The notes beneath the pieces were generated by a model, which did no database searches, had not been told where the DNA came from, and worked only from the letters and a program-made list of their open reading frames with translations. Positions 45,291 through 64,000 of a stretch of DNA of 64,000 nucleotides are shown here, piece by piece; within the stretch, counting starts at the first letter, position 1; the number at the start of each line of letters is the position of its first letter. A program made the translations under genes and the position numbers. Location: positions 64,001 through 128,000 of the forward strand of contig CAWEXO010000002.1 of assembly GCA_963813025.1 (NCBI GenBank). The letters are read 5' to 3'. Origin of the DNA: an uncultured Verrucomicrobiae bacterium. Its GTDB lineage: Bacteria > Verrucomicrobiota > Verrucomicrobiia > Chthoniobacterales > JAFAMB01.

Positions 45291-45522
45291 GCGAGTCCCG
45301 AGCAGTGAGTCCCAAGTCCCGAGTCCCGGGTTGCGGGATCCCGAGTTGGGAGTGGCGAGTAGCCGGCACGAGACAGGACCCATCCGAGGAGCCCAAGTTC
45401 GCGGCGGTACCGCTGAGAAGTGAGATCGATATCTCTCTGATGGAATGAGTGCTGAGAGCCAACTCGGAATCTATCCGCTCGAAACTCGGGACCCGCAACC
45501 CGGGACTCGCTACTCGGGACTC
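45291..45522. repeat. GAGTCCC/GGGACTC heptamer inverted doublet
   Basis: Tandem gagtccc units at 45293-45345 and gggactc units at 45484-45522. Confidence 0.75.
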
Positions 45523-45997
45523 ACTTTACGTAAATCGCGTAAAAGCCGTGGAATATCCCAATTTTTCCATTTCCCGGGTTATCAACCACATAAACCCCTT
45601 CCGGTGTGGCCAGCGCCCGGGTTCTGACGTCAAAGATCAACAGTAATTGCGTCGAAACATCATTACCGGTCATTGCGTGAGGATCGCTTCCATAGACAGA
45701 AGTGGCTTGGGCGGTCCCCTTTGTCAGGCGATTGAGCACCACCGGCACGTCAGCCACGCTCACTTCCCTCGCTTTTACCGCCACAAATGGAGTCTGGTCC
45801 AGGAGTGTACGAGTAGCCGGACGTAACCGGCTGAGAAAGGCCTGGAACCGCGTTGTCGCCATGGCGACCTCCCACGGCTGAGGATCGCCGAGGGCAATCG
45901 AATAGTCGATGTACCCGGCGCGGACCGCCGGTGTCGTGCCTAAGATCAGGATAAAAACGGCTAGCAGAAACGATGGGGCATTCGTTGGTCGTCGCAT
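45521..45997 (-). CDS. Secreted hypothetical protein, paralog of 46187-46717
   Basis: Signal peptide ending AVRA; shares IFD...AT.EG..V...P..GKIG.F.G..A.Y with the neighbour. Confidence 0.7.
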   Translation of the reverse strand: MRRPTNAPSFLLAVFILILGTTPAVRAGYIDYSIALGDPQPWEVAMATTRFQAFLSRLRPATRTLLDQTPFVAVKAREVSVADVPVVLNRLTKGTAQATSVYGSDPHAMTGNDVSTQLLLIFDVRTRALATPEGVYVVDNPGNGKIGIFHGFYAIYVK

Positions 45998-46186
45998 TGA
46001 GGAAGATGCATTAATTAGCGCGACGCGTCCCGAGTTGCTAGTCCCTAGTCCCGAGTGGCGAGATAAGCCCATGTGCAAGTATTACGTTCGTTGAGCAGTG
46101 AAATCACTCTGATTGCAAAAGTCGATGTTCAGCTCCGACCCGCAACCTGATTTGCCGCTCGCCACTCGGGACTCGCCACTAACTTC

Positions 46187-46717
46187 TCACCCTCGGCCGA
46201 TATATACCGCCGAATAACCACCAAACATCCCAATCTTGCCTTTCAGCGGGGTGGACATTACGACGAAGCCTTCATTTGTGGCTGGACGGCCAGTGGCAGC
46301 GTCAAAAATCATGACAAATTTCACGATCATCGCCGTGCGGTTAGTAACATCGCTCGTGTTTACGGTAATCAGGGTCCTCGTATTGGCCATCCCCATTCGT
46401 TGCACGAGTCCTGGCACTTCGTTGGCCGGCAATTCCGTTGATTCGACCGCCAGGTACTGGGCAGGCAAAGCCCCGCCCGCGCGGCGATGTTTGGCCAGGA
46501 AACGGTCCACGCGTGCCTGCGCATTAGCGGCTTCCGCCGGATACGGCTGGCCAACCGCAACGGCGTACTCGGTATAGTCCGCTGTTCGGTTTGCGGCGCA
46601 GCCAACGACAAGAATAAGCAAGGGGAAGCCGAAGAGCAGTCGGCGGATCGGGAGAGGAAAGAAAAAAGCGAACGTATTCAAGGGCGGTTGGTTTCCAGTG
46701 TTAGTGCCAGTTCTCAT
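46187..46717 (-). CDS. Hypothetical lipoprotein, paralog of 45521-45997
   Basis: Lipobox-like LVVGC; same C-terminal motif as the neighbour; true start uncertain. Confidence 0.7.
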   Translation of the reverse strand: MRTGTNTGNQPPLNTFAFFFPLPIRRLLFGFPLLILVVGCAANRTADYTEYAVAVGQPYPAEAANAQARVDRFLAKHRRAGGALPAQYLAVESTELPANEVPGLVQRMGMANTRTLITVNTSDVTNRTAMIVKFVMIFDAATGRPATNEGFVVMSTPLKGKIGMFGGYSAVYIGRG

Positions 46718-49402: not shown

Positions 49403-50023
49403 CTACTTTTGTCCGCCACGCAAGAGGCTTCCCAGCTCAGTCAGCAGTTGCGCAACCACCTCGTCTCCGCGCCCATCGTAATTGCCGCGGACCCGGCCCT
49501 TCCCGTCAATCAGAACGAAACGCGTGAGTGCGCCGGGCGAGGAGCCAGATCGGTCATTTACCGGGTTCGCGGATAGATCGGTGATCAGCGCATCGACGCC
49601 GGCCTTCTCTCCCGTCACGAAAAGCCAGCGTGGCGAGGCTTCGAAACTTGCCCGGTATTGTCTCAGCCTGTCCAGCGCCACGCCGTTGGAATCAGACACG
49701 ATCGAAACCAGCCGCAATCGAGCGCTTTTTTTGAAATTGCTGTCGAGCTCAGCAAAGCGGCCCATGAGCAGAGCCGAGCCGGCTCGATTCTCCCACGAAA
49801 CAACATTTACGACCCAGATTTTGCCGCGCATCGTACCCAGGGTTAAGCGATGGGAGTCCTGGTCAATCAGCGAGAAATCCCTCAATGGCTTGATAACTGG
49901 CAGGGAAATAGCACCGCTCTGCTCCGAAGATTTCCAGGATCGATAAGTAAAAAACGCGGCAAGAGCGAACAAGGCCGCGCCCAGCAACAGCAGTTGCTGA
50001 CTTCGCTGACGCGTCGGGCTCAC
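49403..50023 (-). CDS. SCO/SenC-like protein lacking the CxxxC motif
   Basis: DFSLIDQD, GKIWVV, WLFVTGE, RFVLIDGKGRVRGNYDG; no Cys in the protein. Confidence 0.7.
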   Translation of the reverse strand: MSPTRQRSQQLLLLGAALFALAAFFTYRSWKSSEQSGAISLPVIKPLRDFSLIDQDSHRLTLGTMRGKIWVVNVVSWENRAGSALLMGRFAELDSNFKKSARLRLVSIVSDSNGVALDRLRQYRASFEASPRWLFVTGEKAGVDALITDLSANPVNDRSGSSPGALTRFVLIDGKGRVRGNYDGRGDEVVAQLLTELGSLLRGGQK

Positions 50024-50044
50024 GAGAGAGGCTTGAAAAGGCGC

Positions 50045-50255
50045 GTGGGCGAGACGGCGAAAAAGCGAGAGGGCGAGAGGGCCAATCGGCGAAATGGCGA
50101 ATCGGCGAATGAGCGAATGGGCGAATCGGCAACTAGAGTTGGGCTTGGCATCGCCTCCAAGCTGTCTGGGTGTGCAGTTCGGATTATGTCGAGCACTCGA
50201 CTAGCGTCCTTTTTATCGCCCTTTCCCCGTTCGCCCTTTGGCCCGTTCGCTCCAT
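50045..50255. repeat. GGCGAA-core octamer tandem repeats with an inverted partner
   Basis: ggcgaga/ggcgaaa/ggcgaat units at 50047-50131 and tcgccc units at 50216-50250. Confidence 0.65.
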
Positions 50256-50256
50256 C

Positions 50257-50868
50257 CTACAGAATATAAAGAATGGTAAAGAGGAATACCCAGACGATAT
50301 CGACAAAGTGCCAGTAAAGTCCGGTGCATTCCAAAAAAGAGTGTCGCTCGGGGGTGATGCCGCCGGTGAAGCTCTTGAAGAGCGACGTAAGGAGGAGAAT
50401 CACCCCGATGAAAACGTGCATTCCATGAAAGCCCGTCAGCACGAAGAAGCTGGAACCCATGATCCCGGCAGTATTAAACCAGAAACCTTCGTGATGCAGA
50501 TTGATCCACTCGGTCGCCTGGTTCAGCAAGAAAAGGCTTCCAAGAACGATCGTAAAAAAAAGCAGACGTTTTCCACCTTTGCGCCCTTTGATGAGTCGGC
50601 TTTCACTGAAATGCAGGGTGAAACTGCTGCTGAGCAAAAGGCAGGTCGCAATGAAAGTCTTGATCATCGTCGGCCCGGACTTCAAAGCATCAGGCATCTG
50701 CCAACCCGTCCCGGCACCGGAGCGCAGCACGATATAGCCGCCGATCAGGCCCGCGAAAAGCATCGCTTCGGATGCGAGAAAGGTCAGCATGCCGAAGCGC
50801 ACAATATTCGGGCGCGCTCCAGGTAGAGGTTGCGCTAGTTCTTCAGCAGTGAGAGCGGGTGCGTGCAT
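50257..50868 (-). CDS. ctaE: Cytochrome c oxidase subunit III
   Basis: FLASEAMLF, LTGFHGMHV, LYWHFVDIVW. Confidence 0.92.
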   Translation of the reverse strand: MHAPALTAEELAQPLPGARPNIVRFGMLTFLASEAMLFAGLIGGYIVLRSGAGTGWQMPDALKSGPTMIKTFIATCLLLSSSFTLHFSESRLIKGRKGGKRLLFFTIVLGSLFLLNQATEWINLHHEGFWFNTAGIMGSSFFVLTGFHGMHVFIGVILLLTSLFKSFTGGITPERHSFLECTGLYWHFVDIVWVFLFTILYIL

Positions 50869-50870
50869 AG

Positions 50871-50987
50871 TCAGGGATTATGATAGATCGAAAGTTTCCA
50901 GAGAATCACCGCGAGGGCGAGACTCACCGCAAAAACGACAATGGCGATCAGCATGCGTTGGTTCTTCTTTCGGAGTCGTTCATCCAT
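50871..50987 (-). CDS. 38-aa single-TM protein between ctaB and ctaE
   Basis: MDERLRKKNQRMLIAIVVFAVSLALAVILWKLSIYHNP; start overlaps the ctaB stop and the stop is 2 nt before ctaE. Confidence 0.6.
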   Translation of the reverse strand: MDERLRKKNQRMLIAIVVFAVSLALAVILWKLSIYHNP

Positions 50988-51898
50988 TAGAGTCGCGTAA
51001 AAACCATTCCGGCCAAGGTGATCGGCAGATAAATAATTGAGGCCAGGAACAGGCGGCGCGCTGTGCGCTCGGTTCCGGTCCGCGCAAATCGAAAAGCCGT
51101 CCACAGAAAATAGCCTCCGGTAACCAGCGCGATTGGCAAATAAGCGACCGTAGTGAGTCGCAGGGTGACGGGGAGCAGACTGATGCAAAACAGCGCCATC
51201 GTATAGAGTAATGCCTGTCGTCCGGTGACAGAGCAATCCCCGTCCGCTCCACTCAACATGACGAATCCAGCATTCTTGTAATCTTCCCGACAAATCCACG
51301 AAATCGCGAGGAAATGTGGCATTTGCCAGAAAAACAGGATCGCGAACAATACCCAGCTCTCGAAGTTTGCTTCTCCGCGCGCGGAGGCCCAGCCAATCAC
51401 CGGTGGCAACGCGCCGGGCACAGCTCCCACGATCGTGTTGAGCGTTGTTACCCGCTTCAGAGGGGTGTACGCAAAGACGTAAGTGACTACCGTAATGGCC
51501 GTCAGCATGCCGGTTAAAAGGTTTGTCGCGACGGTGAGATAGACAATACCGCAAGCCGAGAGTCCAATTCCGATGGCCAGCCCCTCATCAACGCTCATCC
51601 GCTGCGCAGGTAACGGCCGATCGCGGGTGCGGCGCATTCGGGCATCGAGATCGACCTCAAATACTTCGTTGAGGGCAGCCGCGCCGGCCGCGGCCAGAGC
51701 GGTTCCAAACAAGGTATGAAAGAGGTACAACCAATTCATCGGCCCGTGCCAGCCGAAAAGAAAGCCGAGCAGCGTCGTAATCAAAACGAGCAAGGTTAGT
51801 CGAGCCTTGACCAGCTCTCCAAAGTCGGACAGGAGGTGCCGATGTTGGGAGGGGGGAGCCACTAAAGCAGCCGGTGTTTTATCAGAGAGGATGTTCAT
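50987..51898 (-). CDS. ctaB: Heme O synthase (protoheme IX farnesyltransferase)
   Basis: DARMRRTRDRPLP, YTPLKR, GALPPVIGW, FFWQMPHF. Confidence 0.95.
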   Translation of the reverse strand: MNILSDKTPAALVAPPSQHRHLLSDFGELVKARLTLLVLITTLLGFLFGWHGPMNWLYLFHTLFGTALAAAGAAALNEVFEVDLDARMRRTRDRPLPAQRMSVDEGLAIGIGLSACGIVYLTVATNLLTGMLTAITVVTYVFAYTPLKRVTTLNTIVGAVPGALPPVIGWASARGEANFESWVLFAILFFWQMPHFLAISWICREDYKNAGFVMLSGADGDCSVTGRQALLYTMALFCISLLPVTLRLTTVAYLPIALVTGGYFLWTAFRFARTGTERTARRLFLASIIYLPITLAGMVFTRL

Positions 51899-52941
51899 AC
51901 CCGGGCCGCCTCCTTCACGCCGAACAATCCCGGGCTCGGCCCGGCAATGCGCCTCCGTTCGACCGCGGCCGCGAGGCAGATGCTGAGTAAAACGCCGCAA
52001 ACGAGAATCAAGGAGCCGATGAAGACATGTGCAGTCGCGATATCGGCCGCCTTGTTACTGAGGATAGTCCATGCTCCCAGCACAGCCTGCACCACGACCA
52101 ATGCCGGCCAGACCAGGGCAAGTCTTCGCACGCTCACCGTCAGCCAGCTCTGGCGAAAGATGAAGGAAGCAACAACGGTAACTGCCAGGAAGATGAGCAG
52201 GGCCCAGCCCCGGTGCAGATACTGCAAATGAATCAGCCCGATGCTTGTCAGCGGCTCCGGCGGAACAGCAGCGGACCGAGCTTCATTGATCCGGGCCAGT
52301 ACCCCTTGATCAGCCGGCGGAAACCATTGGCCGTATGCGGTCGGGAAATCGTGAATGGAAAGTCCGGCATGCGAATGACGCATGGCCGCTCCGAGGATGA
52401 GCTGCAGGAAAATCATCCCAGTGGTGACGATCGTCCAGAACCGGAGCCGCGACGGACCTGACCCGACGGGCGCCGCCGGTAGGCGCTCCCAGCGCGATGA
52501 AGTGACCAACGCAATGCTCCACACCAGACAAAGATAAGCCTGCGCCAGACAACCGTGGAACAGCCCTAGAACAGCGCTGTGTTCGGTGACGCGCAATCCG
52601 CCTAGCACTCCCTGAACAATGACCAAGACAAGAGCCAGCCAACAAAGAGTTTTAACCCAGCGGCGCTGTTCGAAAATGAGCGCAACGACGCAGAGCAGGA
52701 TGGTCAGAACGCCGACCAGACTGGCGATCAGCCGGTGCGTGTGTTCGAACAACACGCCTCCCACCCAACGAGAGACCGGAAACAGAAACATGTTGTAGCC
52801 GAAGCTGTTGGGCCAATCGGGGACAGACATTCCAGCCTCATGACTCGTGACCAAGCCTCCGCTACAGATCAGAACCAGGATGCTGCCGGCGACCAGCACA
52901 GCAATACTGTTCACGATCCGTCTAGGGAAATTGGCGGGCAT
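51895..52941 (-). CDS. ctaA: Heme A synthase
   Basis: GGLVTSHEAGMSVPDWP, EHTHR, HGCLAQ, HR, ATAHV. Confidence 0.9.
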   Translation of the reverse strand: MPANFPRRIVNSIAVLVAGSILVLICSGGLVTSHEAGMSVPDWPNSFGYNMFLFPVSRWVGGVLFEHTHRLIASLVGVLTILLCVVALIFEQRRWVKTLCWLALVLVIVQGVLGGLRVTEHSAVLGLFHGCLAQAYLCLVWSIALVTSSRWERLPAAPVGSGPSRLRFWTIVTTGMIFLQLILGAAMRHSHAGLSIHDFPTAYGQWFPPADQGVLARINEARSAAVPPEPLTSIGLIHLQYLHRGWALLIFLAVTVVASFIFRQSWLTVSVRRLALVWPALVVVQAVLGAWTILSNKAADIATAHVFIGSLILVCGVLLSICLAAAVERRRIAGPSPGLFGVKEAARV

Positions 52942-52959: not shown

Positions 52960-54729
52960 CTAGTGGACGGCGATCCTGGCTGTCTCAGGAGCCGGCTGAT
53001 TTTGCGGTAAATAATCCTGATCCATCCCGGGAACGCTGTACTCGTAAGGCCCATTGTAGACGGTGGGTGTCTTCGCAAAATTTCCGTGGGGTGGCGGCGA
53101 TGGAACAGTCCACTCCAAAGTGGTCGACTCCCAGGGGTTATTAGGCGCCTTCTCACCTCGGAAGATGCTGTAGACGAAATTGATAAAGAACGGGATCATG
53201 GACAGGCCGAGTCCAAAAGCGCTGAGCGAGATGAAGATGTTGACCGGTTGCTGGCTGCGCAGATGGTCGTACAAGGTCGGGTCGGCGATCCGTCTCATCA
53301 TTCCGTTCAGACCCAGGTTATGCATCGGGAAAAACGTGAAGTTGAAAAAGATGAACGCGAGAAAGAAGTGCACCTTGCCCCAAAACTCGTTCATCATGCG
53401 ACCAAACATCTTTGGATACCAAAAGTAGATCGCGCCAAAGATGCCAAAGAGACTGCCACCAAAGAGCACGTAGTGGATATGGGCGACGATAAAATAGGTG
53501 TGATGGATGAAAAGATCGACCGGCGTGGCGGCCATGTAGATTCCGCTTAAGCCGCCGATCACAAACATCGAGACAAACGCCAGCGCGAAACACATCGGCG
53601 TCTTAAAACGGATTGAGCCGCCCCAGACTGTCCCCATCCAATTGAAAGTCTTGATAGCGGAAGGAACCGCAATGAGCATCGTCGAAAACGAAAAGGTGGC
53701 CGAGAGCACCAGGTTCATTCCGCTCACAAACATGTGGTGTCCCCATACGATGAATCCCAGCACACCGATCGCGACCAACGCCCCAACCATTGCTTTGTAA
53801 CCAAAGATCGGTTTGCGCGAGAAGACCGCCAGCACCTCCGACACCAAGCCCATAGCCGGGAGGATCATGATGTAGACCTCCGGGTGTCCAAAGAACCAGA
53901 AAAGATGCTGCCAGAGAAGCGGCTGGCCATAATTGGAGGCGGAGAAAAAGTTAGTGCCGAAATTCAGGTCAAAAAATAACATCGCGGCGGCGGCCGATAA
54001 CACTGGAACCGCTAGAAGCAGGAGAAACGCAGTCACGAGCAGCGACCAGACCGGGAGCGGCAAGCGAAACATTTTCATCCCCGGTGCGCGCATATTGATC
54101 ACTGTGGTGATAAAGTTGGCGGCGCCCGCAATCGACGCCAATCCATTGATAAAAAGGCCAACACACCAGCAACTCTGGCCAATCTGGGTTCCGTTGTAGG
54201 CGGCATTAGCCGAGAGCGGAGCGTACGAGGTCCATCCAGAAGCCGGAAATCCGGTCGGAGCAAAAAAGCTCCCAAGGAGCACGATTCCCGAGAGGAAAAA
54301 CAGCCAAACCGAAAGCGCGTTGAAAAACGGAAATGCCATATCGGGCGCCCCGATTTGCAGGGGAATCAAGAAATTGCCAAACACCCCGATCAAGAGCGGC
54401 ATCACGACCAGGAACACCATCACGGTCGCGTGCATGGTGAAGAGAGCATTGTAACCACCCGGAGAAAAAGCGCCCGTGTCCGTCACCAACCATTTGGGCA
54501 GAAACTGACCGATCAGCGGGACCGGAGTACCGGGAAAAGCCAGTTGAAAGCGAACCCCCATCGCCAACAAGCCGCCCACCGCCATGAAAAACAAGCTAAA
54601 ACACAGGTACTGGATGGCGATGGTTTTATGGTCCAACGACCAGATATATTTTTGAAAAAAACTGAGCTCGTGGTGAGGGTGTTCGTGTTCCTGAATCTCG
54701 CCGACTGGATGAGCGATTGTCTGCGCCAT
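52960..54729 (-). CDS. ctaD: Cytochrome c oxidase subunit I, A1 type
   Basis: TMHA, WFFGHPEVY, WGHHMF, AHIHYV: all six His ligands present. Confidence 0.97.
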   Translation of the reverse strand: MAQTIAHPVGEIQEHEHPHHELSFFQKYIWSLDHKTIAIQYLCFSLFFMAVGGLLAMGVRFQLAFPGTPVPLIGQFLPKWLVTDTGAFSPGGYNALFTMHATVMVFLVVMPLLIGVFGNFLIPLQIGAPDMAFPFFNALSVWLFFLSGIVLLGSFFAPTGFPASGWTSYAPLSANAAYNGTQIGQSCWCVGLFINGLASIAGAANFITTVINMRAPGMKMFRLPLPVWSLLVTAFLLLLAVPVLSAAAAMLFFDLNFGTNFFSASNYGQPLLWQHLFWFFGHPEVYIMILPAMGLVSEVLAVFSRKPIFGYKAMVGALVAIGVLGFIVWGHHMFVSGMNLVLSATFSFSTMLIAVPSAIKTFNWMGTVWGGSIRFKTPMCFALAFVSMFVIGGLSGIYMAATPVDLFIHHTYFIVAHIHYVLFGGSLFGIFGAIYFWYPKMFGRMMNEFWGKVHFFLAFIFFNFTFFPMHNLGLNGMMRRIADPTLYDHLRSQQPVNIFISLSAFGLGLSMIPFFINFVYSIFRGEKAPNNPWESTTLEWTVPSPPPHGNFAKTPTVYNGPYEYSVPGMDQDYLPQNQPAPETARIAVH

Positions 54730-54737
54730 AAAAGTTG

Positions 54738-55610
54738 TTACTCGTTCTTGGCTAAAGCCTTTTCGGGAGTTTTTTGCGGAACTGCAGCGTCCGCCTTTTC
54801 CTTGTACCACTTGTCGAAATCGGCCTGGGAAACAACCTCGATTTGCGCCTTCATATTGTAGTGCCCCTGGCCGCAAAGCTGACTGCAGGCCAACTGGAAA
54901 GAGCCCACTTGGGTAGGGATGAACCAGACCCAATCAATTGTTCGCCCTGGGACAGCGTCCTGGTAAATCCGGAATTGCGGTATGTAAAAACCGTGAATCA
55001 CATCTTTCGAATTGAGCCGGACTCGCACCGGTTTATTGACAGGCAACTCAAGGACGCCGGATTCAAAGTTATCTTTGGTGGCGGGATCATTTCTATCATT
55101 GCCGAAAGGATTATCGTTCGAAATCAGGTTTACATCGGAACGCCCGAGATGGCCGTCGCGCCCCGGGTACTGCATGCTAAAACCGAACTGGTAGGAGGTA
55201 ACGGCCACCTCCATCGAATCGCTTGGTGGAGTCGCATGGATGACATTCCACCACATATGATTGCTGTAGCCCCAGAGACCGATAAAGATCGCGGTTGGAA
55301 TCGCCGTCCAGACGATCTCCAGAAGGTTGTTGCCGTGGCTGTACTTGGCGCGAACGCCTTTCCGCGAGCGGTACTTGATCAGAAAATAGACGTAAACAAC
55401 CTGAGTCAGGACAAAAACCGCGCCCGTCAGGTAGAAAATGATCCAGATCAGGAAATCAATTTCCCGACCGCCCTTGCTCGCCACATCCGGCATCCACCAG
55501 AGACCAGAAGTGCGCGGTTCCGCCGACGCCGCAGCCGCGGTTGCCAGCAAGACGAAAAACGGAAAGAAGCGTCGTACAATTCGTGGTCGCAGAAAAATCA
55601 TACCGGTCAA
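54738..55610 (-). CDS. ctaC: Cytochrome c oxidase subunit II (CuA, no fused cytochrome c)
   Basis: LEIVWTAIP, DVIHGF, CSQLCGQGHYNM. Confidence 0.93.
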   Translation of the reverse strand: MTGMIFLRPRIVRRFFPFFVLLATAAAASAEPRTSGLWWMPDVASKGGREIDFLIWIIFYLTGAVFVLTQVVYVYFLIKYRSRKGVRAKYSHGNNLLEIVWTAIPTAIFIGLWGYSNHMWWNVIHATPPSDSMEVAVTSYQFGFSMQYPGRDGHLGRSDVNLISNDNPFGNDRNDPATKDNFESGVLELPVNKPVRVRLNSKDVIHGFYIPQFRIYQDAVPGRTIDWVWFIPTQVGSFQLACSQLCGQGHYNMKAQIEVVSQADFDKWYKEKADAAVPQKTPEKALAKNE

Positions 55611-55640: not shown

Positions 55641-56456
55641 TCATGAGTGCCCCGGGGTGGCCGCGGCAGGCGGCGCAGAGGTCGCTGGAGGATTTCCAGG
55701 CGTTGGCGCCGGCGGCTTGCCGCCGTTGGCCGAGGGAGCGGACGCCGGTTGGCCGGGTGGCGGCGGTTTCGCGGCAGTTTTGGTCAGATCCATCGGCGGA
55801 AGCTTCATCAATTCCGGGTAGGTCCATTGTTCCTTACGATCCTTCAGCTGATCCCGCATGTGCTTGACCATGTCTGCCGTGATCGGGGGCGCGTTGTTGC
55901 CCCATTCCGAGCGGACGTAAGTAAGAATCGATGCTAACTGCTGATCCGTGTACTGACCTTCCCAAGCCTGCATTGCGTTATTGAAGGTTTGGCCTTTGAC
56001 CTGTACCGATCCCTGTAACCCCTTCAGCACGATCCCGATCAGCCGGTTGCTGGCTTCGCCGTTGACGAATTCTGAACCGGCTAACGGTGGATATTGCCCG
56101 GGAATTCCTAATCCAGTGGCTTGATGGCAGGTGATACAGTTCGCGGAAAAAAGGGCTTTCCCGACTGCTCGCGGATCCGCCGGGGCGGCCGCCCCTCCCG
56201 CTTGAGCGCCAAACTTCGGCTGATAATCAAATACGTCGGCCGCAAATCCTCCGCTGAAGGAAAACAGATAAGCGCCTGCCCAGAAGAGTCCGAGCAGCAG
56301 CAGGCCGAGCAGCCACTTTGGGACCGGAGCGTCCGCCACGGCCGGCATTGAAAACTCGGTCTCAAGCGCGTTTTGCTCTTGCTGCGCCGAGTCCGACTCA
56401 GGCCCGGCTGATCCGGCGGCGGACGGTTGTTCTGGATCGGTAAAAGATGCACTCAT
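55641..56456 (-). CDS. Membrane-anchored monoheme cytochrome c
   Basis: TM helix, CITCH, YPPLAGSE, axial Met region NAMQAW. Confidence 0.9.
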   Translation of the reverse strand: MSASFTDPEQPSAAGSAGPESDSAQQEQNALETEFSMPAVADAPVPKWLLGLLLLGLFWAGAYLFSFSGGFAADVFDYQPKFGAQAGGAAAPADPRAVGKALFSANCITCHQATGLGIPGQYPPLAGSEFVNGEASNRLIGIVLKGLQGSVQVKGQTFNNAMQAWEGQYTDQQLASILTYVRSEWGNNAPPITADMVKHMRDQLKDRKEQWTYPELMKLPPMDLTKTAAKPPPPGQPASAPSANGGKPPAPTPGNPPATSAPPAAATPGHS

Positions 56457-57076
56457 TCTTTCGGTTCAGGGGCCTCCGGCAACGGGTAGTCGCGCTTCAG
56501 CGATAGCAGATAGCCCACTAATTCGCGGGCTTGCCGGGTTGGAACGATCTCGTAGCCGGGCGGAGGCGCGTCCGATCCCTGCAGGTGCAGCGCATCCGCC
56601 GAAACCTGGCCAACGATCTTCCGCTCAGCGAAGAGCCAGGGATAAGCCGGCATGTTCGCTTCGGGGTTCATCTGCCTGGGATCAAACAACAAACGGTAAA
56701 ACCATTGGGCATCGGTCTGACGCACGCCGACGTTGGTCAGATCCGGTCCTTGTCGCGAATCACCAAGAAAAACTTGCCCGTCAAAAAGGTAATCGCGCGC
56801 GACTGTCCGCCGGTTACCCCATTTGCGTTCGATGTCGCTGCCTTCATTCTTGTCGCGAACAAATTGGGTGTGGCAATTCACACAGCCATTTCCGGCGTAC
56901 ACGTGGTAGCCTTGAGCGGCCGTTCCGGGAATGCCCGGCGGAGCGATTGCCCCGGTGTTCTCGTCTTTGTGCGGCTGCAATGCCGCAAAGGTCAGGTAAG
57001 GATAAGCGACAAGGCCTAGCCAGGAGGCCCCAAACACCCCGAAAACGCCCAGGAAAAATGTACTGAATCGGTTCAC
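56453..57076 (-). CDS. CcoO/FixO-like monoheme cytochrome c
   Basis: TM helix, GCVNCHTQFVR, RQGPDL, NMPAYPWL. Confidence 0.88.
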   Translation of the reverse strand: MNRFSTFFLGVFGVFGASWLGLVAYPYLTFAALQPHKDENTGAIAPPGIPGTAAQGYHVYAGNGCVNCHTQFVRDKNEGSDIERKWGNRRTVARDYLFDGQVFLGDSRQGPDLTNVGVRQTDAQWFYRLLFDPRQMNPEANMPAYPWLFAERKIVGQVSADALHLQGSDAPPPGYEIVPTRQARELVGYLLSLKRDYPLPEAPEPKE

Positions 57077-58569
57077 GCGACGCCAACCTCCTGAGAGAGC
57101 GGTTCCGGTGCAGGCTCGCTTGGCTCCGCCTCGGCCGACACCGGTTCAACCAGAGGAATCGCCGGACCAAGCAGGATAATCAGGAATGACCAGATCGCGA
57201 TCGCATTGGCCGCTAAGAGCACAAGCACGGCGACAAAGCGGAAAAGATAGAATGGGCCGGCCAGATCCGTTATCGCGTTGAATTCTATTTTTGCGTCGTT
57301 AAGGCCGAAGCCCTGGATTACGCCTCCCATAAAAGTGCTGACCGCTAAAAGCCCAAGTCCAACGACAGTTAACCAGAAGTGAAACTGAATAGCGGCGCGG
57401 GAAAGCCACTTTCGCAGAAGTAGTCGCGGAACGATATAATAGATTGCTCCAAAGAGCGTCAGTCCGACAAAGCCAAAGATCGTTAGCAGCATCGGCAGCG
57501 ATCCCGCCATCGTGAACTCCGTTACGCGATTGATCGTGCGGAACGCGGTGATCGCCTCCCACACCCCGGTCGCCGTATAAATCATTGTTCCAATGACAAT
57601 AAATCGAAGAACCAGGTTCCAGCTGAGTGCCTCGAAGTGATCGCCCAAAGTGCTGTGAAAATTCGCGGCGACGGCGGCGATCGGCAACACCATCAGCACC
57701 GTTGACACAATGCCGGAGGTCATCATCCAGGCCGGAAGCGGACCGGCCAGAATGTTCGTCATGCCGGTCCAACCACCCAAGATTGCCAAACCCCAGAAGC
57801 TGTTCAGCGCTAGTCGATAGCTGTGCAGCGGACGCCCAACCAGCTTCGGCAGAAAGTAAAACGCGATTCCGAGAGCGACCGGAGTCAGCCACAGATCTCG
57901 CACCACATTGACGTACCACCAGTGAATAGCGGGCTGGGCAACTCCCGATGCCTGGGATACGTTCAGCAGCAGATTGCCGGTGAGATACGCCCAGGAAAAC
58001 CAGAAGAACGCCGCCACGAGGTACCAATGCGCGATGTACGTATTCCTCCGCCGCCAGTAAAGTCGCAGGACCCAGAGACTCATGATCGCCAGCGCAAGAA
58101 AAATGCTGAACCCGGCATAAGGATTAATATCGAGCAGCAGCCGACCCCTTCCGCCACCCGACAACAGGCTGATCAAGCCGCAAAACAAACCCAGATTCCA
58201 AATCAATCCGGCATAGATCGGCAGCGGACCGGCAGGTTCCACTGAAGTACTGAGACGTCCAAGAATCCAGACGGCGGCGCCGATCCCGGCCATGGAGCAC
58301 CAGCCGTAAACCAGCAGGTTGAGGGCGGCCGGATATGCACGACCGAAGGTAAGCCAAGGGACCTGGCTACCTGTCCACCAGGCATGGGGCGCGAATTGCT
58401 GCGCACTAGCGACTAAAAGAAGAAGGGAAGCGAGGAGCAACCAACCTAGCGCAGACCCGAAAAAGATCAGAACAGGCGTGCGCACCGGCCGGTCAAAGTC
58501 AGACGTCCGTGGCGGCAGTGTGGTATCGCGGTTTAAAGGCTCGGCATTCAGGATGGCGGGGCTGCTCAT
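57073..58569 (-). CDS. CcoN/FixN-like polytopic membrane protein lacking the metal-ligand histidines
   Basis: WLTFGR, WY, WWY, YFLPK..GRPLHSY.L...FW, AIYYIVPRL and HFWL scaffold motifs of CcoN are present; His ligand positions are substituted. Confidence 0.8.
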   Translation of the reverse strand: MSSPAILNAEPLNRDTTLPPRTSDFDRPVRTPVLIFFGSALGWLLLASLLLLVASAQQFAPHAWWTGSQVPWLTFGRAYPAALNLLVYGWCSMAGIGAAVWILGRLSTSVEPAGPLPIYAGLIWNLGLFCGLISLLSGGGRGRLLLDINPYAGFSIFLALAIMSLWVLRLYWRRRNTYIAHWYLVAAFFWFSWAYLTGNLLLNVSQASGVAQPAIHWWYVNVVRDLWLTPVALGIAFYFLPKLVGRPLHSYRLALNSFWGLAILGGWTGMTNILAGPLPAWMMTSGIVSTVLMVLPIAAVAANFHSTLGDHFEALSWNLVLRFIVIGTMIYTATGVWEAITAFRTINRVTEFTMAGSLPMLLTIFGFVGLTLFGAIYYIVPRLLLRKWLSRAAIQFHFWLTVVGLGLLAVSTFMGGVIQGFGLNDAKIEFNAITDLAGPFYLFRFVAVLVLLAANAIAIWSFLIILLGPAIPLVEPVSAEAEPSEPAPEPLSQEVGVA

Positions 58570-58583
58570 GATATTGGCAACTT

Positions 58584-59012
58584 TCAGGAGTGATTCGGGG
58601 ATGAGCCACCCGCAGGCGCGGGTGAGCCACCGACTGCCGCCGCGGGTGCTGGGCTCTTTGCCGGACTACTGGCCGGCGATGGACTTGGCGCCGGCGCGGT
58701 GACTGGACCGGCCGAATGCGGGTGATTGCTCTGCAAATCGGTGAGTTCCAGTCCCATGGCCCGATCAATCGGGATTCCCACGACTCCGTTCTTGCGATCG
58801 ATCCAATGATAGCTCGTGAAAATTTTCTGATTTTCGGCGTTCAGGTCTGCCAGATTTTTCAAGCGCTGTTCCGTGCGCAATTCGTCGTAGCTCTTGATTC
58901 CGCCCCGCCGCGAGACGATCACAAAGAGCAAGCCGCCAATAAGACACACCAGGATAAGGCTCCCGACAACGCTGAGAAACGTTGGACGTCCGTTTTGTGA
59001 ATTTCCGTTCAT
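58584..59012 (-). CDS. Single-TM hypothetical protein after actF (ActG-like position)
   Basis: TM helix, SYHWIDRKNGVVGIPIDRAM, Pro/Ala-rich tail. Confidence 0.6.
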   Translation of the reverse strand: MNGNSQNGRPTFLSVVGSLILVCLIGGLLFVIVSRRGGIKSYDELRTEQRLKNLADLNAENQKIFTSYHWIDRKNGVVGIPIDRAMGLELTDLQSNHPHSAGPVTAPAPSPSPASSPAKSPAPAAAVGGSPAPAGGSSPNHS

Positions 59013-59019
59013 TAGTGCA

Positions 59020-60264
59020 CTAACCAGTACCCTCGTTCGATAGCCGAACACTCTCGAGCAGACGCGGATCTCTGGCCGGAAACAGGTTCACTGAGCCAAG
59101 GGACCGCAAAAACAGGAACGCAAGCAGGCAGCCAATCGCCAGCAGGCTGAGTAGATCGAGAATGCTGAACTGAAAGCCGGCCGGATGCAGGAAAGGCGAG
59201 ACACTGACGTATGTGTCGATCATGTGCATTCCCAGTATCCAGTAGCACATAAGGCTGAGCAGGTGCGGGTTGCGCTTGGTGAACTCGAAAAGCAAGTACA
59301 GGAACGGGATAAAGAATCGCCCCACCACCATGATCGTACTCAGAACGTGCCACGACTCGATATTGCGACGCAGGAACCATTCCGTCTCTTCCGGAATATT
59401 CCCGTACCAGATCAGCATGTATTGAGCAAAACCGATGTAGGCCCAGAAAATCGTGAAAGTCAAAAGCAGCTTACCCATGATCTGGTAATGCTCTGCGTTG
59501 ACCCCAGCCAGGTAACCCGCGTTCTTCAGCCCGTAAACTACCAGGACGATTAAGGCCATCCCCGCTCCCGCTGATCCCGCAAAGATGTAGACACCCCACA
59601 TCGTGGAAGCCCAGCGATAGTCAGGGGAAGAAACCCAGTCAAACGCGGCCAGGGTTGTGAAAACCGCGAACAGGACAATACAAACGAACGACACTCCACG
59701 CATTTGAATTGACCAGTGCGGATCGCCATCGGAATCCTGGCGAACGGAGGTTCGCCGAAAATAAACGGCCACGCCTCCGAAAAACAGGAAATAGAGGACT
59801 GCCCGAATCCAGAAGAAGGGCACAGTCAAACCATCGAAATGCAGCACGAAGTAGCCGAGCTTGGCCTTCAGAGGCGGATCGATCGGAACATGGTGGCTTG
59901 CCGCAATCCAATTCCAGATGTCCTGACGAGCCAGGAAAAGCGGTATGAAGAACAAGATCATCCAGCGAAGCAACGCCGCCAGGTTTTCCATTTGCCGCCG
60001 TACCAGGATTCCCCAACCCGAATCAGTGGAATGATGAACAATGATCCAAAAGAAGCATCCGATCAGAATCGTGAAAAAGTAGACGAATGCGAAAAGCCAT
60101 GAAAACGCGAACTGACGCCGAGTTTCGCTGCCGGCCGGCGCAAGAAAGCCAGTCAGCAATGTCACTGTCGCGCAGAAAATGCCGGCCCCAAGCAGGACCA
60201 ACAGAAGCCGGCTGAGATTGGTGCCACGGAAGGTTTCGGCCGTTGGAACTAAATTATGGTTCAT
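59020..60264 (-). CDS. actF: Alternative complex III subunit F
   Basis: Polytopic; FDWVSS..YRWASTMWG, FWAYIGFAQYMLIWYGNIPEET. Confidence 0.88.
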   Translation of the reverse strand: MNHNLVPTAETFRGTNLSRLLLVLLGAGIFCATVTLLTGFLAPAGSETRRQFAFSWLFAFVYFFTILIGCFFWIIVHHSTDSGWGILVRRQMENLAALLRWMILFFIPLFLARQDIWNWIAASHHVPIDPPLKAKLGYFVLHFDGLTVPFFWIRAVLYFLFFGGVAVYFRRTSVRQDSDGDPHWSIQMRGVSFVCIVLFAVFTTLAAFDWVSSPDYRWASTMWGVYIFAGSAGAGMALIVLVVYGLKNAGYLAGVNAEHYQIMGKLLLTFTIFWAYIGFAQYMLIWYGNIPEETEWFLRRNIESWHVLSTIMVVGRFFIPFLYLLFEFTKRNPHLLSLMCYWILGMHMIDTYVSVSPFLHPAGFQFSILDLLSLLAIGCLLAFLFLRSLGSVNLFPARDPRLLESVRLSNEGTG

Positions 60265-60947
60265 TTCTGGTTCTCGAGCGCCGGACGCAGGTTTGGTGGC
60301 ACATCCGCAATCCTGGCGTACTGGCTTCGTTGCAGCGCTCGGATGTATGCGACGATCGCCCATCGATCCTTCACCGTGACCTTGTCGCCATACGGCATCA
60401 TCGTGTTATAACCGTGCGTGATCGTATTGAAAATCTGTCCGTCCGCCATTTGCCGGTATTTGTCCTGATGATAATTGGCGATGCCGTTCAGGCCATATTT
60501 GGAGGTAATGCCGTTTCCTTGCCCGGTAGCACCGTGACAGACCGCGCAGTTGATCGTGAATACCTCCTGACCTCGCTGCAACAATGCCGCCGTAATGGGT
60601 AGCGGCAGACCCGTACCCCAGTTGTTACCCATTTTTCCAGTGTTATAGTAGTCAGTACCAGCCGTGAATTCGCCGATGGGTGACATGATATCATTGGGCG
60701 GATTGGAGTTTTGGGTCGGGTGGTCGGGAATGTCGTAACCAAGCGGAATCGTACCATCAACGGGAGGGCGAGCGGCCCGCCCGTCTGCGAAAAAAAGACT
60801 CGGCTTTTGGTACTTGATCTTGGACTGGCGTTTCATGTCACCGAAGAACTCGATCGGGGGCGTCGGGCGATGTTGTCCCTGAAAACCGAGCAGCGCCACG
60901 GACACCGCGCAAAGCAGCAGGAAACCGATCAAAAAATTCTTAATCAT
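60261..60947 (-). CDS. actE: Alternative complex III monoheme cytochrome c subunit E
   Basis: DMKRQ, FFADGRAARPPVDGT, CAVCH, MMPY, DRWAIVAYIRALQ. Confidence 0.88.
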   Translation of the reverse strand: MIKNFLIGFLLLCAVSVALLGFQGQHRPTPPIEFFGDMKRQSKIKYQKPSLFFADGRAARPPVDGTIPLGYDIPDHPTQNSNPPNDIMSPIGEFTAGTDYYNTGKMGNNWGTGLPLPITAALLQRGQEVFTINCAVCHGATGQGNGITSKYGLNGIANYHQDKYRQMADGQIFNTITHGYNTMMPYGDKVTVKDRWAIVAYIRALQRSQYARIADVPPNLRPALENQK

Positions 60948-61500
60948 TTTCGTGGAGCACCGTCACCTCTTTGCCGCCGATGCCCGCCAGGAACTCGCCG
61001 GTTTCGCTCTCGCGAAACTTTGGATCGATCGCATCGATCACGAGGAAGAAACCATCATCGGTCACGCGTTTGAAAGGTGCGTGATCAAAGAGCGGATGAT
61101 GCAAACGAGGCAAGCGATTCATCACGAAGACACCGAAAAAAGCGGTGAAAGCAGAAAACAGAATCGTCAATTCGAACATGATCGGAAAAAACGCCGGCAC
61201 GGTGAAAAAGTTTACCGGCTTTCCATGCACGATCAGCGGATTTAGGAAGGACGAAGGGATGAATTCGAGGAGGGCCGCAGTCAGAAAACCGGTTAAGCCG
61301 CCAACAAAGATAATATAGCCCAAGGGTGATCTTTTAAGCCCCATCGCCTTGCTCATTCCGTGGATTGGAAAGGGAGAATGAACGTCCCAGTATTTGTATC
61401 CACTGTCGCGCACCTGCTCGGCCGCACGATAGATCTCGGCCGCGGAGGCAAATTCCGCGACCAGGCCAAAGACTAGGGGTCGGGTAGCTATCGGGCTCAT
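60940..61500 (-). CDS. actD: Alternative complex III subunit D (DUF3341)
   Basis: [29 protein letters not shown]. Confidence 0.88.
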
Positions 61501-62928
61501 GCTTCGGCTTGCTGGATCGTCTCGGGAACTCCGGTCGACGGAGGATGATAGTGCGGGTTGGCGACCGGCAGGACACTTTTTACCTCGGACATCGCGACCA
61601 TCGGGAGAAAACGAATGAACAGGAGGAAAAGACTGATAAAAATGCCGTGGGTACCAACGAAAGTAAAAACGTCCACCCAGGTCGGGTAATACATCCCCCA
61701 ACTGGAGGGCAGGAAATCGCGGGTCAATGAGACCGCTATGATCACGAATCGCTCAAACCACATTCCGGCGTTCACGCACATGCACACAAAGTAGACTGTC
61801 CAAACATTTCGCCGGAAAGCCCTTACCCAGAACAATTGGGGGATGATCACGTTGCAGGTGAACATTGACCACCCAGCCCACCAGTAAGGCCCGAAGTAGC
61901 GATTTAAAAAGATGAATCGCTCAAAGGGATTGGCGCCGTAATAGGCGACAAAAAACTCCATGCAATACGAGTACCCGACGATCGAGCCGGTCAGCAGGAT
62001 GATCTTGCACATCACGTCGATGTGATTCCAGGTAAAGACGTCCTGCAGGCCGTAGAGGTACCGCGCCGGGATCATCAGGGTCAGGACCATGGCGAATCCA
62101 CCGAAGATCGCGCCCGCCACGAAGTAGGGCGGGAAGATCGTCGTATGCCAGCCCGGGATCAGCGAGGTCGCAAAATCAAAGGACACGGTTGAGTGCACGG
62201 AAAGGACCAGCGGAGTGGAGATCCCGGCCAGAACGAGATACGCCATCTCGTAATGCCGCCACTGCCGATTTCCTCCGCGCCATCCGAGCGCCAGAACGCC
62301 GTAGACGAATTTGTTAAACCGGCTGCGAGCGCGATCGCGCATCGTGCCCAGATCCGGAACCAAGCCCAGAAACCAGAACAATACCGACACCGTAAAGTAA
62401 GTCGAGACCGCGAAAACGTCCCAGAGCAGCGGGCTCCGGAAGTTAGGCCAGATCCAGTTCGGCACCGGCACTGGCGCCATGAACCAAACCATCCAGATGC
62501 GGCCAACGTGAATCGCCGGAAAGATTCCGGCGCAGATCACGGCAAACAAGCGTCATCGCTTCGGAGGATCGGTTGATCGAAGTCCGCCATTTCTGGCGTG
62601 TGAGAAAAAGGATCGCCGAGATCAGCGTACCGGCGTGGCCGATACCGATCCAGAAAACGAAGTTAGTGATATCCCACGCCCAACCAATCGGGATGTTGTT
62701 ACCCCAGACACCTACACCGGTCCAAAGCAGGTAAATGATACAGAAAACACCGAAGCCGGCGAAGGATCCGGTGACCGCTATAGCAATCCACCACCAAAGA
62801 GGCGTTTTCCGTTCAACCCCTCCGGCGATCAGATTGGTCACCCAATGCATCGAGCGATTGTTCTCCACCAGCGGCGGTCGAGGCATCCGCTCGATGAACG
62901 GCGTCATTGTGGCATTGGATTCAGCCAT
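61497..62928 (-). CDS. actC: Alternative complex III subunit C (NrfD/PsrC-like), frameshift near 62550
   Basis: [48 protein letters not shown]. Confidence 0.92.
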
Positions 62929-64000
62929 CAGGCGTTACCTCCGACGGGCTTGTTTTCGGCCTGCGATACTGGGGCCGGGACCTCGCTGACTTCAGGTTTG
63001 GTGTTTATTCGGCCAACCTTTGCGGCGCCAGGCATTTTCGGGTTTGGGTTTCGCAGCCGAGCCAGGTAGGTCGTCCGGGTGTTCAGGTTCAGGTACTTCA
63101 GCAGCTGGTAATTCTGAGGGAGGGCGCGCAGATGCGAAACGTGACTCGCCGGATCCTTAATATCGCCAAAGACGATCGCCTCGTTCGGACAGACCTGTTG
63201 GCAAGCCGTCCTGATCGAGTCCGTGGGAAGCGACAAATCTTTTTCCACGCCCGCTTTGATCCGTTGGGAGATTTTTGCCGTCTCAATCCGCTGCACACAG
63301 TAGGTGCATTTTTCCATGACCCCGCGCATGCGAACCGTCACGTTCGGATTTTTCTGCAGCTTGGAAATTTCGTCCATTCCCCAATGGGCCAGCGGTCCGA
63401 GGTAAAGCTGTTGCTTTCCCTGGAAACCGGGTGCGCCGTGCTCGATCCGGTCAAGCACAGGGCGATCGTTGTAATTGAAGAAATTGAATCGGCGAACCTT
63501 AAACGGGCAATTGTTTGAGCAATAGCGAGTTCCGATACATCGGTTATAGACCATCACGTTCAAGCCTTCCTCGCTATGAACCGTGGCGTTCACCGGACAG
63601 ACCGTTTCACAGGGAGCATTCTCGCAGTGCTGGCACATCAAGGGCTCCATCACCATAGCGGGATCAGCCGCCAGATCCGGGCTTTTCCGGTCTCCCTCCG
63701 CAGTGGCAAAATAGCGGTCAACTCGGATCCATTGCATTTCCCGGAACGAATCGACCTGATCTTTGCCGACCACCGGCACATTGTTCTCGGCCTGGCAGGC
63801 GATCACGCAGGCTGAACAACCGGTGCACGTGTTCAAATCAACCACCATTGCCCATTGATTAGGCGCGTTCAGCGGCGGATGCGAGTAGAGCGAGACATTC
63901 GGCGGGATTTCTGCATCCATGCCCATCGTTTGGGCGAAGGCCGGATTTTTCGCGTAATCTTCCACCGTGCCTTCGCGCACCAGGTTGCGGCCCTCCATGC
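62928..64000 (-). CDS. actB: Alternative complex III subunit B, C-terminal Fe-S part (5' end outside the window)
   Basis: [45 protein letters not shown]. Confidence 0.92.

Follow-up and report, generated by a model that had tools for sequence, protein, structure and literature searches.

A CcoN-like protein without metal ligands, retained in alternative complex III operons of Verrucomicrobiia

What keeps subunit I of a terminal oxidase in its operon once every ligand for heme and copper is gone? The question is raised by a 64,000-nucleotide stretch of DNA from an uncultured Verrucomicrobiae bacterium (contig CAWEXO010000002.1 of assembly GCA_963813025.1, positions 64,001 to 128,000 of the forward strand; henceforth the window), in which three minus-strand genes stand directly behind actF and actG of an operon for alternative complex III (ACIII). 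The first, N (57073..58569, -), encodes a C-family subunit I of CcoN fold: 498 amino acids, no stop, 12 helices, no ligands. The second, O (56453..57076, -), encodes a CcoO/FixO-like monoheme membrane cytochrome c, and the third, P (55641..56456, -), a membrane-anchored monoheme cytochrome. N overlaps O, and O overlaps P, by 4 bases each. The full-length frame of N, the overlapping O with its CVNCH and the overlapping P with its CITCH had been described in an initial annotation made from the letters alone, and the coordinates given there are confirmed.

That annotation also held that every metal-ligand position of N is substituted. Alignment with Pseudomonas stutzeri CcoN (3mk7_A), whose residue numbers and ligand roles we take as given, with columns placed by motif, bears this out: the six histidine columns read H60>A82, H207>N221, H257>T271, H258>N272, H345>P359 and H347>L361, and the column of the cross-linked Tyr251 is G265. 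A hidden Markov model (HMM) built from 55 intact orthologs finds the same columns with full posterior probability. No histidine is left in the low-spin heme b columns (A82 and L361), the heme b3 column (P359) or the CuB columns (N221, T271, N272). Alternative histidine ligands were looked for, and by alignment and HMM none of the seven histidines of N (62, 181, 216, 249, 305, 311 and 397) falls in a ligand column; with all six His columns and the Tyr column lost, N would be catalytically dead, as had been proposed. The protein matches PF00115 (E 1.7e-39) and reaches 123.8 bits against TIGR00780, whose cut-off is 583.15. Its AlphaFold2 model (predicted local distance difference test, pLDDT, 86.7) fits 3mk7_A best, with a TM-score of 0.83 and a root-mean-square deviation of 2.0 Å, a fold partly inherited from the intact members in the input alignment. 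The column of the canonical glutamate of nitric oxide reductases (NOR) is W337, the NOR-type conserved His and acidic metal ligands are absent, and the column of the propionate-side Arg is Tyr79. Judged by its sequence, N belongs to no catalytic heme-copper family.

The loss extends well beyond this genome. Of 301 genomes of the phylum, 93 have N-family matches (canonical CcoN counted too), as do 139 of the 151 genomes of the order. From 140 fetched stretches of at most 20 kb, 120 loci with N, ActE, ActF and O form the counted set; loci at contig ends or with incomplete genes, one open reading frame (ORF) in genome G347, a split extra copy (G355x) and the outgroup oxidases are left out of it. 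Six His and Tyr are present in 55 loci, 63 (here called decayed) have zero to two His (28, 26 and 9 loci, respectively), and 2 lack one His. Wherever the stretch covers them, the act genes are followed by N, O and P in that order across Verrucomicrobiia, while the genes after P vary; the N of the window falls inside the ACIII-linked clade with support 100. Histidine loss is therefore not consistent among orthologs as a whole, since 55 of 120 loci keep every His, and is consistent within the window's own family, f1, in which all 15 other fetched loci and a same-genus relative are decayed. Chance thus does not account for the loss in the window, and in place of strain-specific decay, which was looked for, there is decay that is family-wide and of repeated origin. 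Among 121 full-coverage representatives, 4 of them intact (of 150 at 50% identity), the ligand columns show 118 patterns; they evidently drift freely once the site is lost.

Another possibility would be that N still holds a cofactor by ligands of a different kind, as a new member of the heme-copper superfamily with a catalytic or electron-carrying role. Non-His low-spin ligands do occur in nNOR and eNOR (PMC11214002, in the parts available), and family f3, which evolves slowly, keeps the two low-spin heme His and no other ligand (HNQRYH) in 6 of 7 loci. In the window the ligand columns are occupied by Ala, Asn, Thr, Asn, Pro and Leu, f1 has no newly placed His, Met or Cys that is conserved (H305 and H397 are also in intact copies), and the propionate-side Arg is gone, so that a hidden cofactor is very improbable, the least probable of the explanations weighed here. 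Family f3 may possibly be a one-heme, electron-wire intermediate. Its loci (L052:9188-10675, L053, L181-L184) combine slow N evolution with an O that has a long Pro/Ala insert before the Met.

The outgroup oxidases in the N trees are intact, which makes the intact site ancestral. A tree built from ActC, D, E and F does not depend on the ligand trait, and in it the decayed copies fall into 18 separate clades, or 16 without the two single-His cases. Trees of N itself, minus the ligand columns, give 7 decayed clades, and 3 changes in a 39-locus subset; in these trees long branches draw decayed copies together. A single origin of the decayed copies is rejected (p-AU 0.0003). There were at least three independent losses, and probably ten or more.

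What remains of N after the loss is under constraint. Against its nearest relative (genome G443) the ratio of nonsynonymous to synonymous substitution (dN/dS, or omega) is 0.113 (dN 0.074, dS 0.66; Nei-Gojobori). The median is 0.154 in decayed pairs (16 of 17 with estimable dS) and 0.108 in intact pairs (12 of 14), and all 16 estimable decayed pairs lie between 0.07 and 0.36. The purifying selection anticipated for a retained subunit is thus found, and selection on decayed N is relaxed, not neutral; nor, with its 498-residue frame intact and an omega of 0.113, does the N of the window have the marks of a pseudogene. Full-length frames persist though lineages have diverged to 21-22% identity, and W43, G76, G89, W218, P277, P279 and W281 are invariant. 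N could nevertheless be a slowly decaying vestige, held in place by overlapping, translationally coupled genes and by the harm that a misfolded membrane protein would do. The 4-base overlaps, the faster evolution of N after the loss and the one split extra copy (G355:C1) fit such a history; the omega values, the full-length frames with their invariant residues and the fact that a clean deletion would remove the cost fit it poorly, and we regard it as distinctly unlikely.

The columns that are lost and those that are kept differ in kind. Fifty-five columns that are fixed in intact N fall below 50% in decayed copies; every ligand is among them, as are the Tyr, the Arg that precedes the first His and the periplasmic-loop Glu. 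Decayed copies keep 39 columns, of which 29 are Gly, Pro, Trp, Phe or Tyr. Polar residues are retained as well (R77, R105, N125, N303, R382, H397 and Q419 in 87-100% of decayed copies), and others, N221, R224, D225, T271 and N272, line the empty cofactor cavities; with such residues the 12-helix barrel might have a second activity, for instance the binding or movement of an ion, a lipid, a quinone or heme. Canonical CcoN shares most of the retained polar residues, the cavity residues differ even within f1 and run to 118 patterns in 121 representatives, and the columns of T229, S254 and Y265, which we take to be a putative proton path, are lost. We therefore give a second activity little credence, only slightly more than the vestige.

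The two cytochromes share the fate of N unequally. O scores above the PF02433 cut-off, and in the window it retains CVNCH and the axial Met (NMP), so that N has its CcoO partner; the oxidase-facing Tyr, Thr and His are replaced. CxxCH is kept by O in all loci, and between intact and decayed loci the Tyr of CxYCH falls from 100% to 43%, the Thr of TMRTG from 98% to 17% and one His from 100% to 29%. All 55 intact loci have the axial Met of O, as do 54 of the 63 decayed ones, the replacements being Cys in 6, His in 2 and Lys in 1; the family of the window keeps it. These substitutions (Cys in L187, L190, L192-L194 and L100; His in L105 and L106; Lys in L064) are solely by other possible heme ligands and occur in at least four lineages, N being decayed in each. 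P combines a weak FixP_N-like anchor with a heme domain of the c552 or NirK-fused type (CITCH and Met162), which matches the cytochrome c domain of three-domain copper nitrite reductase at E 4e-22, cytochrome c552 at 2e-17 and CcoP at 3e-5. In non-intact loci with a complete P, CxxCH is retained in 64 of 64 and the Met in 63 of 64. Of 53 intact loci, 52 share an N-terminal motif in P that only 1 of 62 decayed loci has, counts from a motif picked post hoc from the intact set and from related loci that are not independent; the position of the motif is presumably the site of the CcoP proton-entry Glu. The pattern reads as the joint loss of the putative catalytic, proton and O-to-heme-b functions, with retention of the fold and of the P heme. 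The heme wire of the initial annotation was to run through c-type hemes generally; the carrier under constraint is the c552-like P, and O, with its Met replaced in 9 of 63 decayed loci, is less so.

Could an empty N still hold P? In a predicted N+O+P complex P scored 0.82, and the best of three controls, one of which had N replaced, 0.01; the score mark is reached by 116 of 157 solved pairs and 2 of 215 mismatched pairs. The runs agree in at least 94% of their contacts, and partner pLDDT is at least 82. The helix of P is predicted to lie on residues 276-306 of N, adjoining the invariant P277, P279 and W281. Solved cbb3 N-O-P complexes already exist, so this pass may reflect likeness to them more than binding.

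A candidate acceptor other than N is regularly at hand. An A-type CtaD is encoded in 30 of 30 decayed genomes and in 33 of 41 intact ones (72 genomes, one unscored; Fisher p 0.017, overstated because the eight CtaD-less exceptions represent four genera), and each of 5 further decayed genomes matches COX1 strongly. In the window, CtaD (52960..54729, -) is an intact A1-type subunit I with six His and GHPEVY, and CtaC (54738..55610, -) is a CuA subunit II with a CuA-type motif and without CxxCH; the six His of CtaD and the missing cytochrome fusion of CtaC had both been read correctly at the outset. The CuA motif of CtaC (CSQLCGQGHYNM) has Gln where the usual motif has, we assume, Glu. The genome encodes a second A-type subunit I elsewhere, and a third copy that is frame-broken (G000:C13:550031-551584 and C14:373945-375501).

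The explanation that we favor, and think likely though well short of assured, is that N is a dead oxidase kept as the scaffold for a c552-type carrier that links ACIII to an A-type oxidase. In the ancestor, electrons would have run from menaquinol through ACIII, P, O and heme b to b3/CuB. Where an A-type oxidase could accept electrons from P, the active site of N would become dispensable; N would still be required to anchor and stabilize O and P. The N scaffold would thus keep O and P beside ACIII, and P would pass its electrons to CuA of the A-type oxidase, much as ActA of Flavobacterium is proposed to do with its tethered monoheme domain. N itself would behave as one of the structural subunits at the point where electrons leave ACIII; the heme of O would be a relay in some lineages and merely structural in others.

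Several observations pull the other way. If O were an obligate relay, its axial Met would hardly be expected to be replaced in 9 of 63 decayed loci. Relative to ActC and ActF, the rate of N roughly doubles after the loss (median ratio 2.2, versus 1.2). Columns at the predicted interface are not clearly better retained in decayed copies than those elsewhere (means of 0.62 and 0.55, p 0.13), 7 of the 39 retained columns are among the 42 interface residues (p 0.057), and the N-terminal motif of P, which lies in or beside the predicted contact with N, is itself lost. ctaC/ctaD are adjacent in 34 of 63 decayed loci (29 have none) and in 13 of 55 intact ones, as judged within the fetched stretches, where contig ends conceal some neighbors; adjacency to aa3 genes thus does not account for the loss of the site. 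An adjacent aa3 operon is neither necessary nor sufficient for loss, and the fixed context is ACIII. The aa3 neighbor, which the initial annotation had made part of the definition, consequently drops out, while the scaffold stands as the best reading. Finally, ACIII persists without the module in a Methylacidiphilum relative (G039:C1:237998-239128), which has ActF and in which N, FixO and a full-length match to P are all absent; N-O-P can evidently leave as a unit.

In the most serious competitor, N is supercomplex glue or an assembly or stability factor for ACIII or for ACIII with its oxidase, O and P lie off the main path, and ActE or ActA is the donor, directly or through a soluble c552. 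The near-invariant His/Met ligation of P sits badly with this, as does the ACIII of G039 that lives without N-O-P; and a CtaC without fused heme c, as in the window, needs a carrier. Purifying selection on N and its fixed linkage to act genes would be expected of such a factor, as would the drifting heme ligation of O, and ActE has been proposed as a direct donor in Rhodothermus marinus (PMC8552683, in the parts available). We judge this account improbable, though the least so of the competitors; the role in assembly or transport that had been offered as an alternative to the wire gained no support.

The remainder of the minus-strand cluster fits the order actA(5 hemes)-B-C-D-E-F-G-N-O-P-ctaC-D-A-B-E-sco. 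Upstream of N lie ActG (58584..59051; a 155-residue ORF whose family profile matches Chloroflexus ActG, 8k9e_G, at E 1.3e-5, its start likely being the ATG near 59012), ActF (59020..60264; profile against 6f0k_F, E 3e-117), the monoheme cytochrome c ActE (60261..60947; by position and Pfam), ActD (60940..61500; PF11821), ActC (61497..62928) and the 3' part of ActB (62928..64000; full length 1074 residues), with the pentaheme ActA just past the window end. actC occupies two frames because of a single additional base near 62548-62551. A short-read contig from run X1, 99% alike, lacks this base and from there on is shifted by one base against the window, so the split is likely an assembly error. 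Beyond ctaC and ctaD follow ctaA (51895-52941), ctaB (50987-51898), ctaE (50257-50868), a small ORF (49863-50132) and a Sco-like gene below the Pfam cut-off (49403-50023), all on the minus strand. Farther off, at 45521-46717, is a tandem pair of small ORFs of 185 and 176 residues, secreted or lipoprotein-like, with C-terminal ends alike. Close homologs have names that assign them to Chthoniobacterales or Verrucomicrobia.

Several other loci stand out. Intact ACIII-linked N (for example L051:9280-10776) forms its own C-family clade, without the FEGP Glu, and in eight genomes with an intact ACIII-linked N no A-type oxidase was found beside it. Some genomes of family f10 (L038, L039, L040) have a third C-family-like subunit I of 546-618 residues with six His and Tyr, GYYMHQGVG and a diheme O; in family f40, of another class (L035, L036, L037), an intact C-family-like subunit I stands behind a gene for a seven-heme cytochrome; and in L034 several kilobases with extra small CxxCH ORFs separate actF from actG-N.

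Decayed copies carry the name of cbb3 subunit I in cultured and named bacteria: Methylacidiphilum fumariolicum (CCG92522.1), M. kamchatkense (QDQ41613.1), M. caldifontis (TFE71122.1), Opitutus terrae (ACB77202.1), Horticoccus luteus, Oleiharenicola lentus, Opitutus sp. GAS368 and Phragmitibacter flavus. These eight keep at most one of the six ligands. In none of three Methylacidiphilum-type genomes, two of which are single contigs, does a CcoN exceed the cut-off; an O. terrae-type genome has one such CcoN elsewhere. As far as the available parts of these papers go, ACIII-linked cbb3 has been tied to high O2 affinity (PMC6688271), cbb3 has been counted as one of three oxidases with Refojo 2010 cited for the linkage (PMC8498564, and likewise PMC10205796), and cbb3 has been termed high-affinity in M. 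caldifontis (bioRxiv 10.1101/2024.01.15.574570). In the available portion of that preprint the M. caldifontis cbb3 transcripts do not change significantly between oxic and anoxic N2O growth, which would fit a constitutive module, whereas cbb3 of Methylocella differs; a nos cluster is said there to lie inside the M. caldifontis ACIII genes. A prior description of a ligand-less CcoN was sought and none found in literature from which subscription papers, Refojo 2010 included, and supplements lay outside coverage; the accessible parts of PMC12341988, PMC13608581 and PMC8361435 have nothing on it. The N family is thus real, conserved and convergent, and apparently undescribed, and the "high-affinity cbb3 oxidase" of bacteria such as Methylacidiphilum is likely not an enzyme, if its ligand columns are a guide. 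In its widest form, which we advance tentatively and at slightly less than an even chance, the proposal would be that an oxidase turned into a cofactor-free adaptor of ACIII at least ten independent times across Verrucomicrobiia; that the adaptor presents a c552-type cytochrome to any acceptor (aa3, caa3, ba3, perhaps NosZ); that this is the first fully ligand-less lineage of heme-copper pseudoenzymes, with f3 a frozen intermediate; and that Methylacidiphilum has no cbb3. The finding itself should correct published physiology: four papers, to the extent available, count the Methylacidiphilum gene as a cbb3 oxidase and two of them as high-affinity. The ligands need to be checked wherever microaerobic respiration in Verrucomicrobia is called from genomes. 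The natural series of intact, heme-b-only and empty N in cultured strains gives access to electron hand-over by ACIII and to the transition from enzyme to scaffold.

How, then, does the module compare with known systems? It resembles cbb3 CcoNOP (P. stutzeri 3mk7, Rhodobacter capsulatus 6xkw) in the fold of N (TM 0.83), an O of the FixO family, the N-O-P order and the predicted packing, and differs in that the N of the window has neither the Tyr nor ligands for heme b, b3 or CuB (TIGR00780, 124 of 583 bits), that its P is monoheme and c552-like where CcoP is diheme, and that the module is linked to ACIII. Intact verrucomicrobial orthologs (Nibricoccus aquaticus ATC62872.1, Actomonas aquatica WP_221030848.1, Coraliomargarita algicola WPJ95726.1) share the cassette at 30-39% identity; unlike the N of the window they keep six His and Tyr, without the canonical FEGP Glu, and would be active by their motifs; a search for biochemistry of an intact ACIII-linked C-family oxidase found none. 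The eNOR, bNOR, sNOR, nNOR and gNOR reductases and the dismutase NOD arose from O2 reductases through loss of the active-site Tyr, one His being replaced as well in gNOR, and the available parts of that account include no heme-copper family without a metal site (PMC11214002). They keep a conserved metal site, whereas the N family has none and its columns drift. A functional parallel is offered by the ACIII-aa3 of Flavobacterium johnsoniae and the ACIII-caa3 of R. marinus, in which an extra heme c is carried on a tethered ActA domain or fused to the oxidase, the tethered sixth heme of Flavobacterium ActA being the proposed donor (PMC8552683, parts available). There one extra heme c feeds an A-type oxidase, as it would here; in the window ActA has five hemes and CtaC none, and the extra heme would be that of P, held on a dead scaffold.

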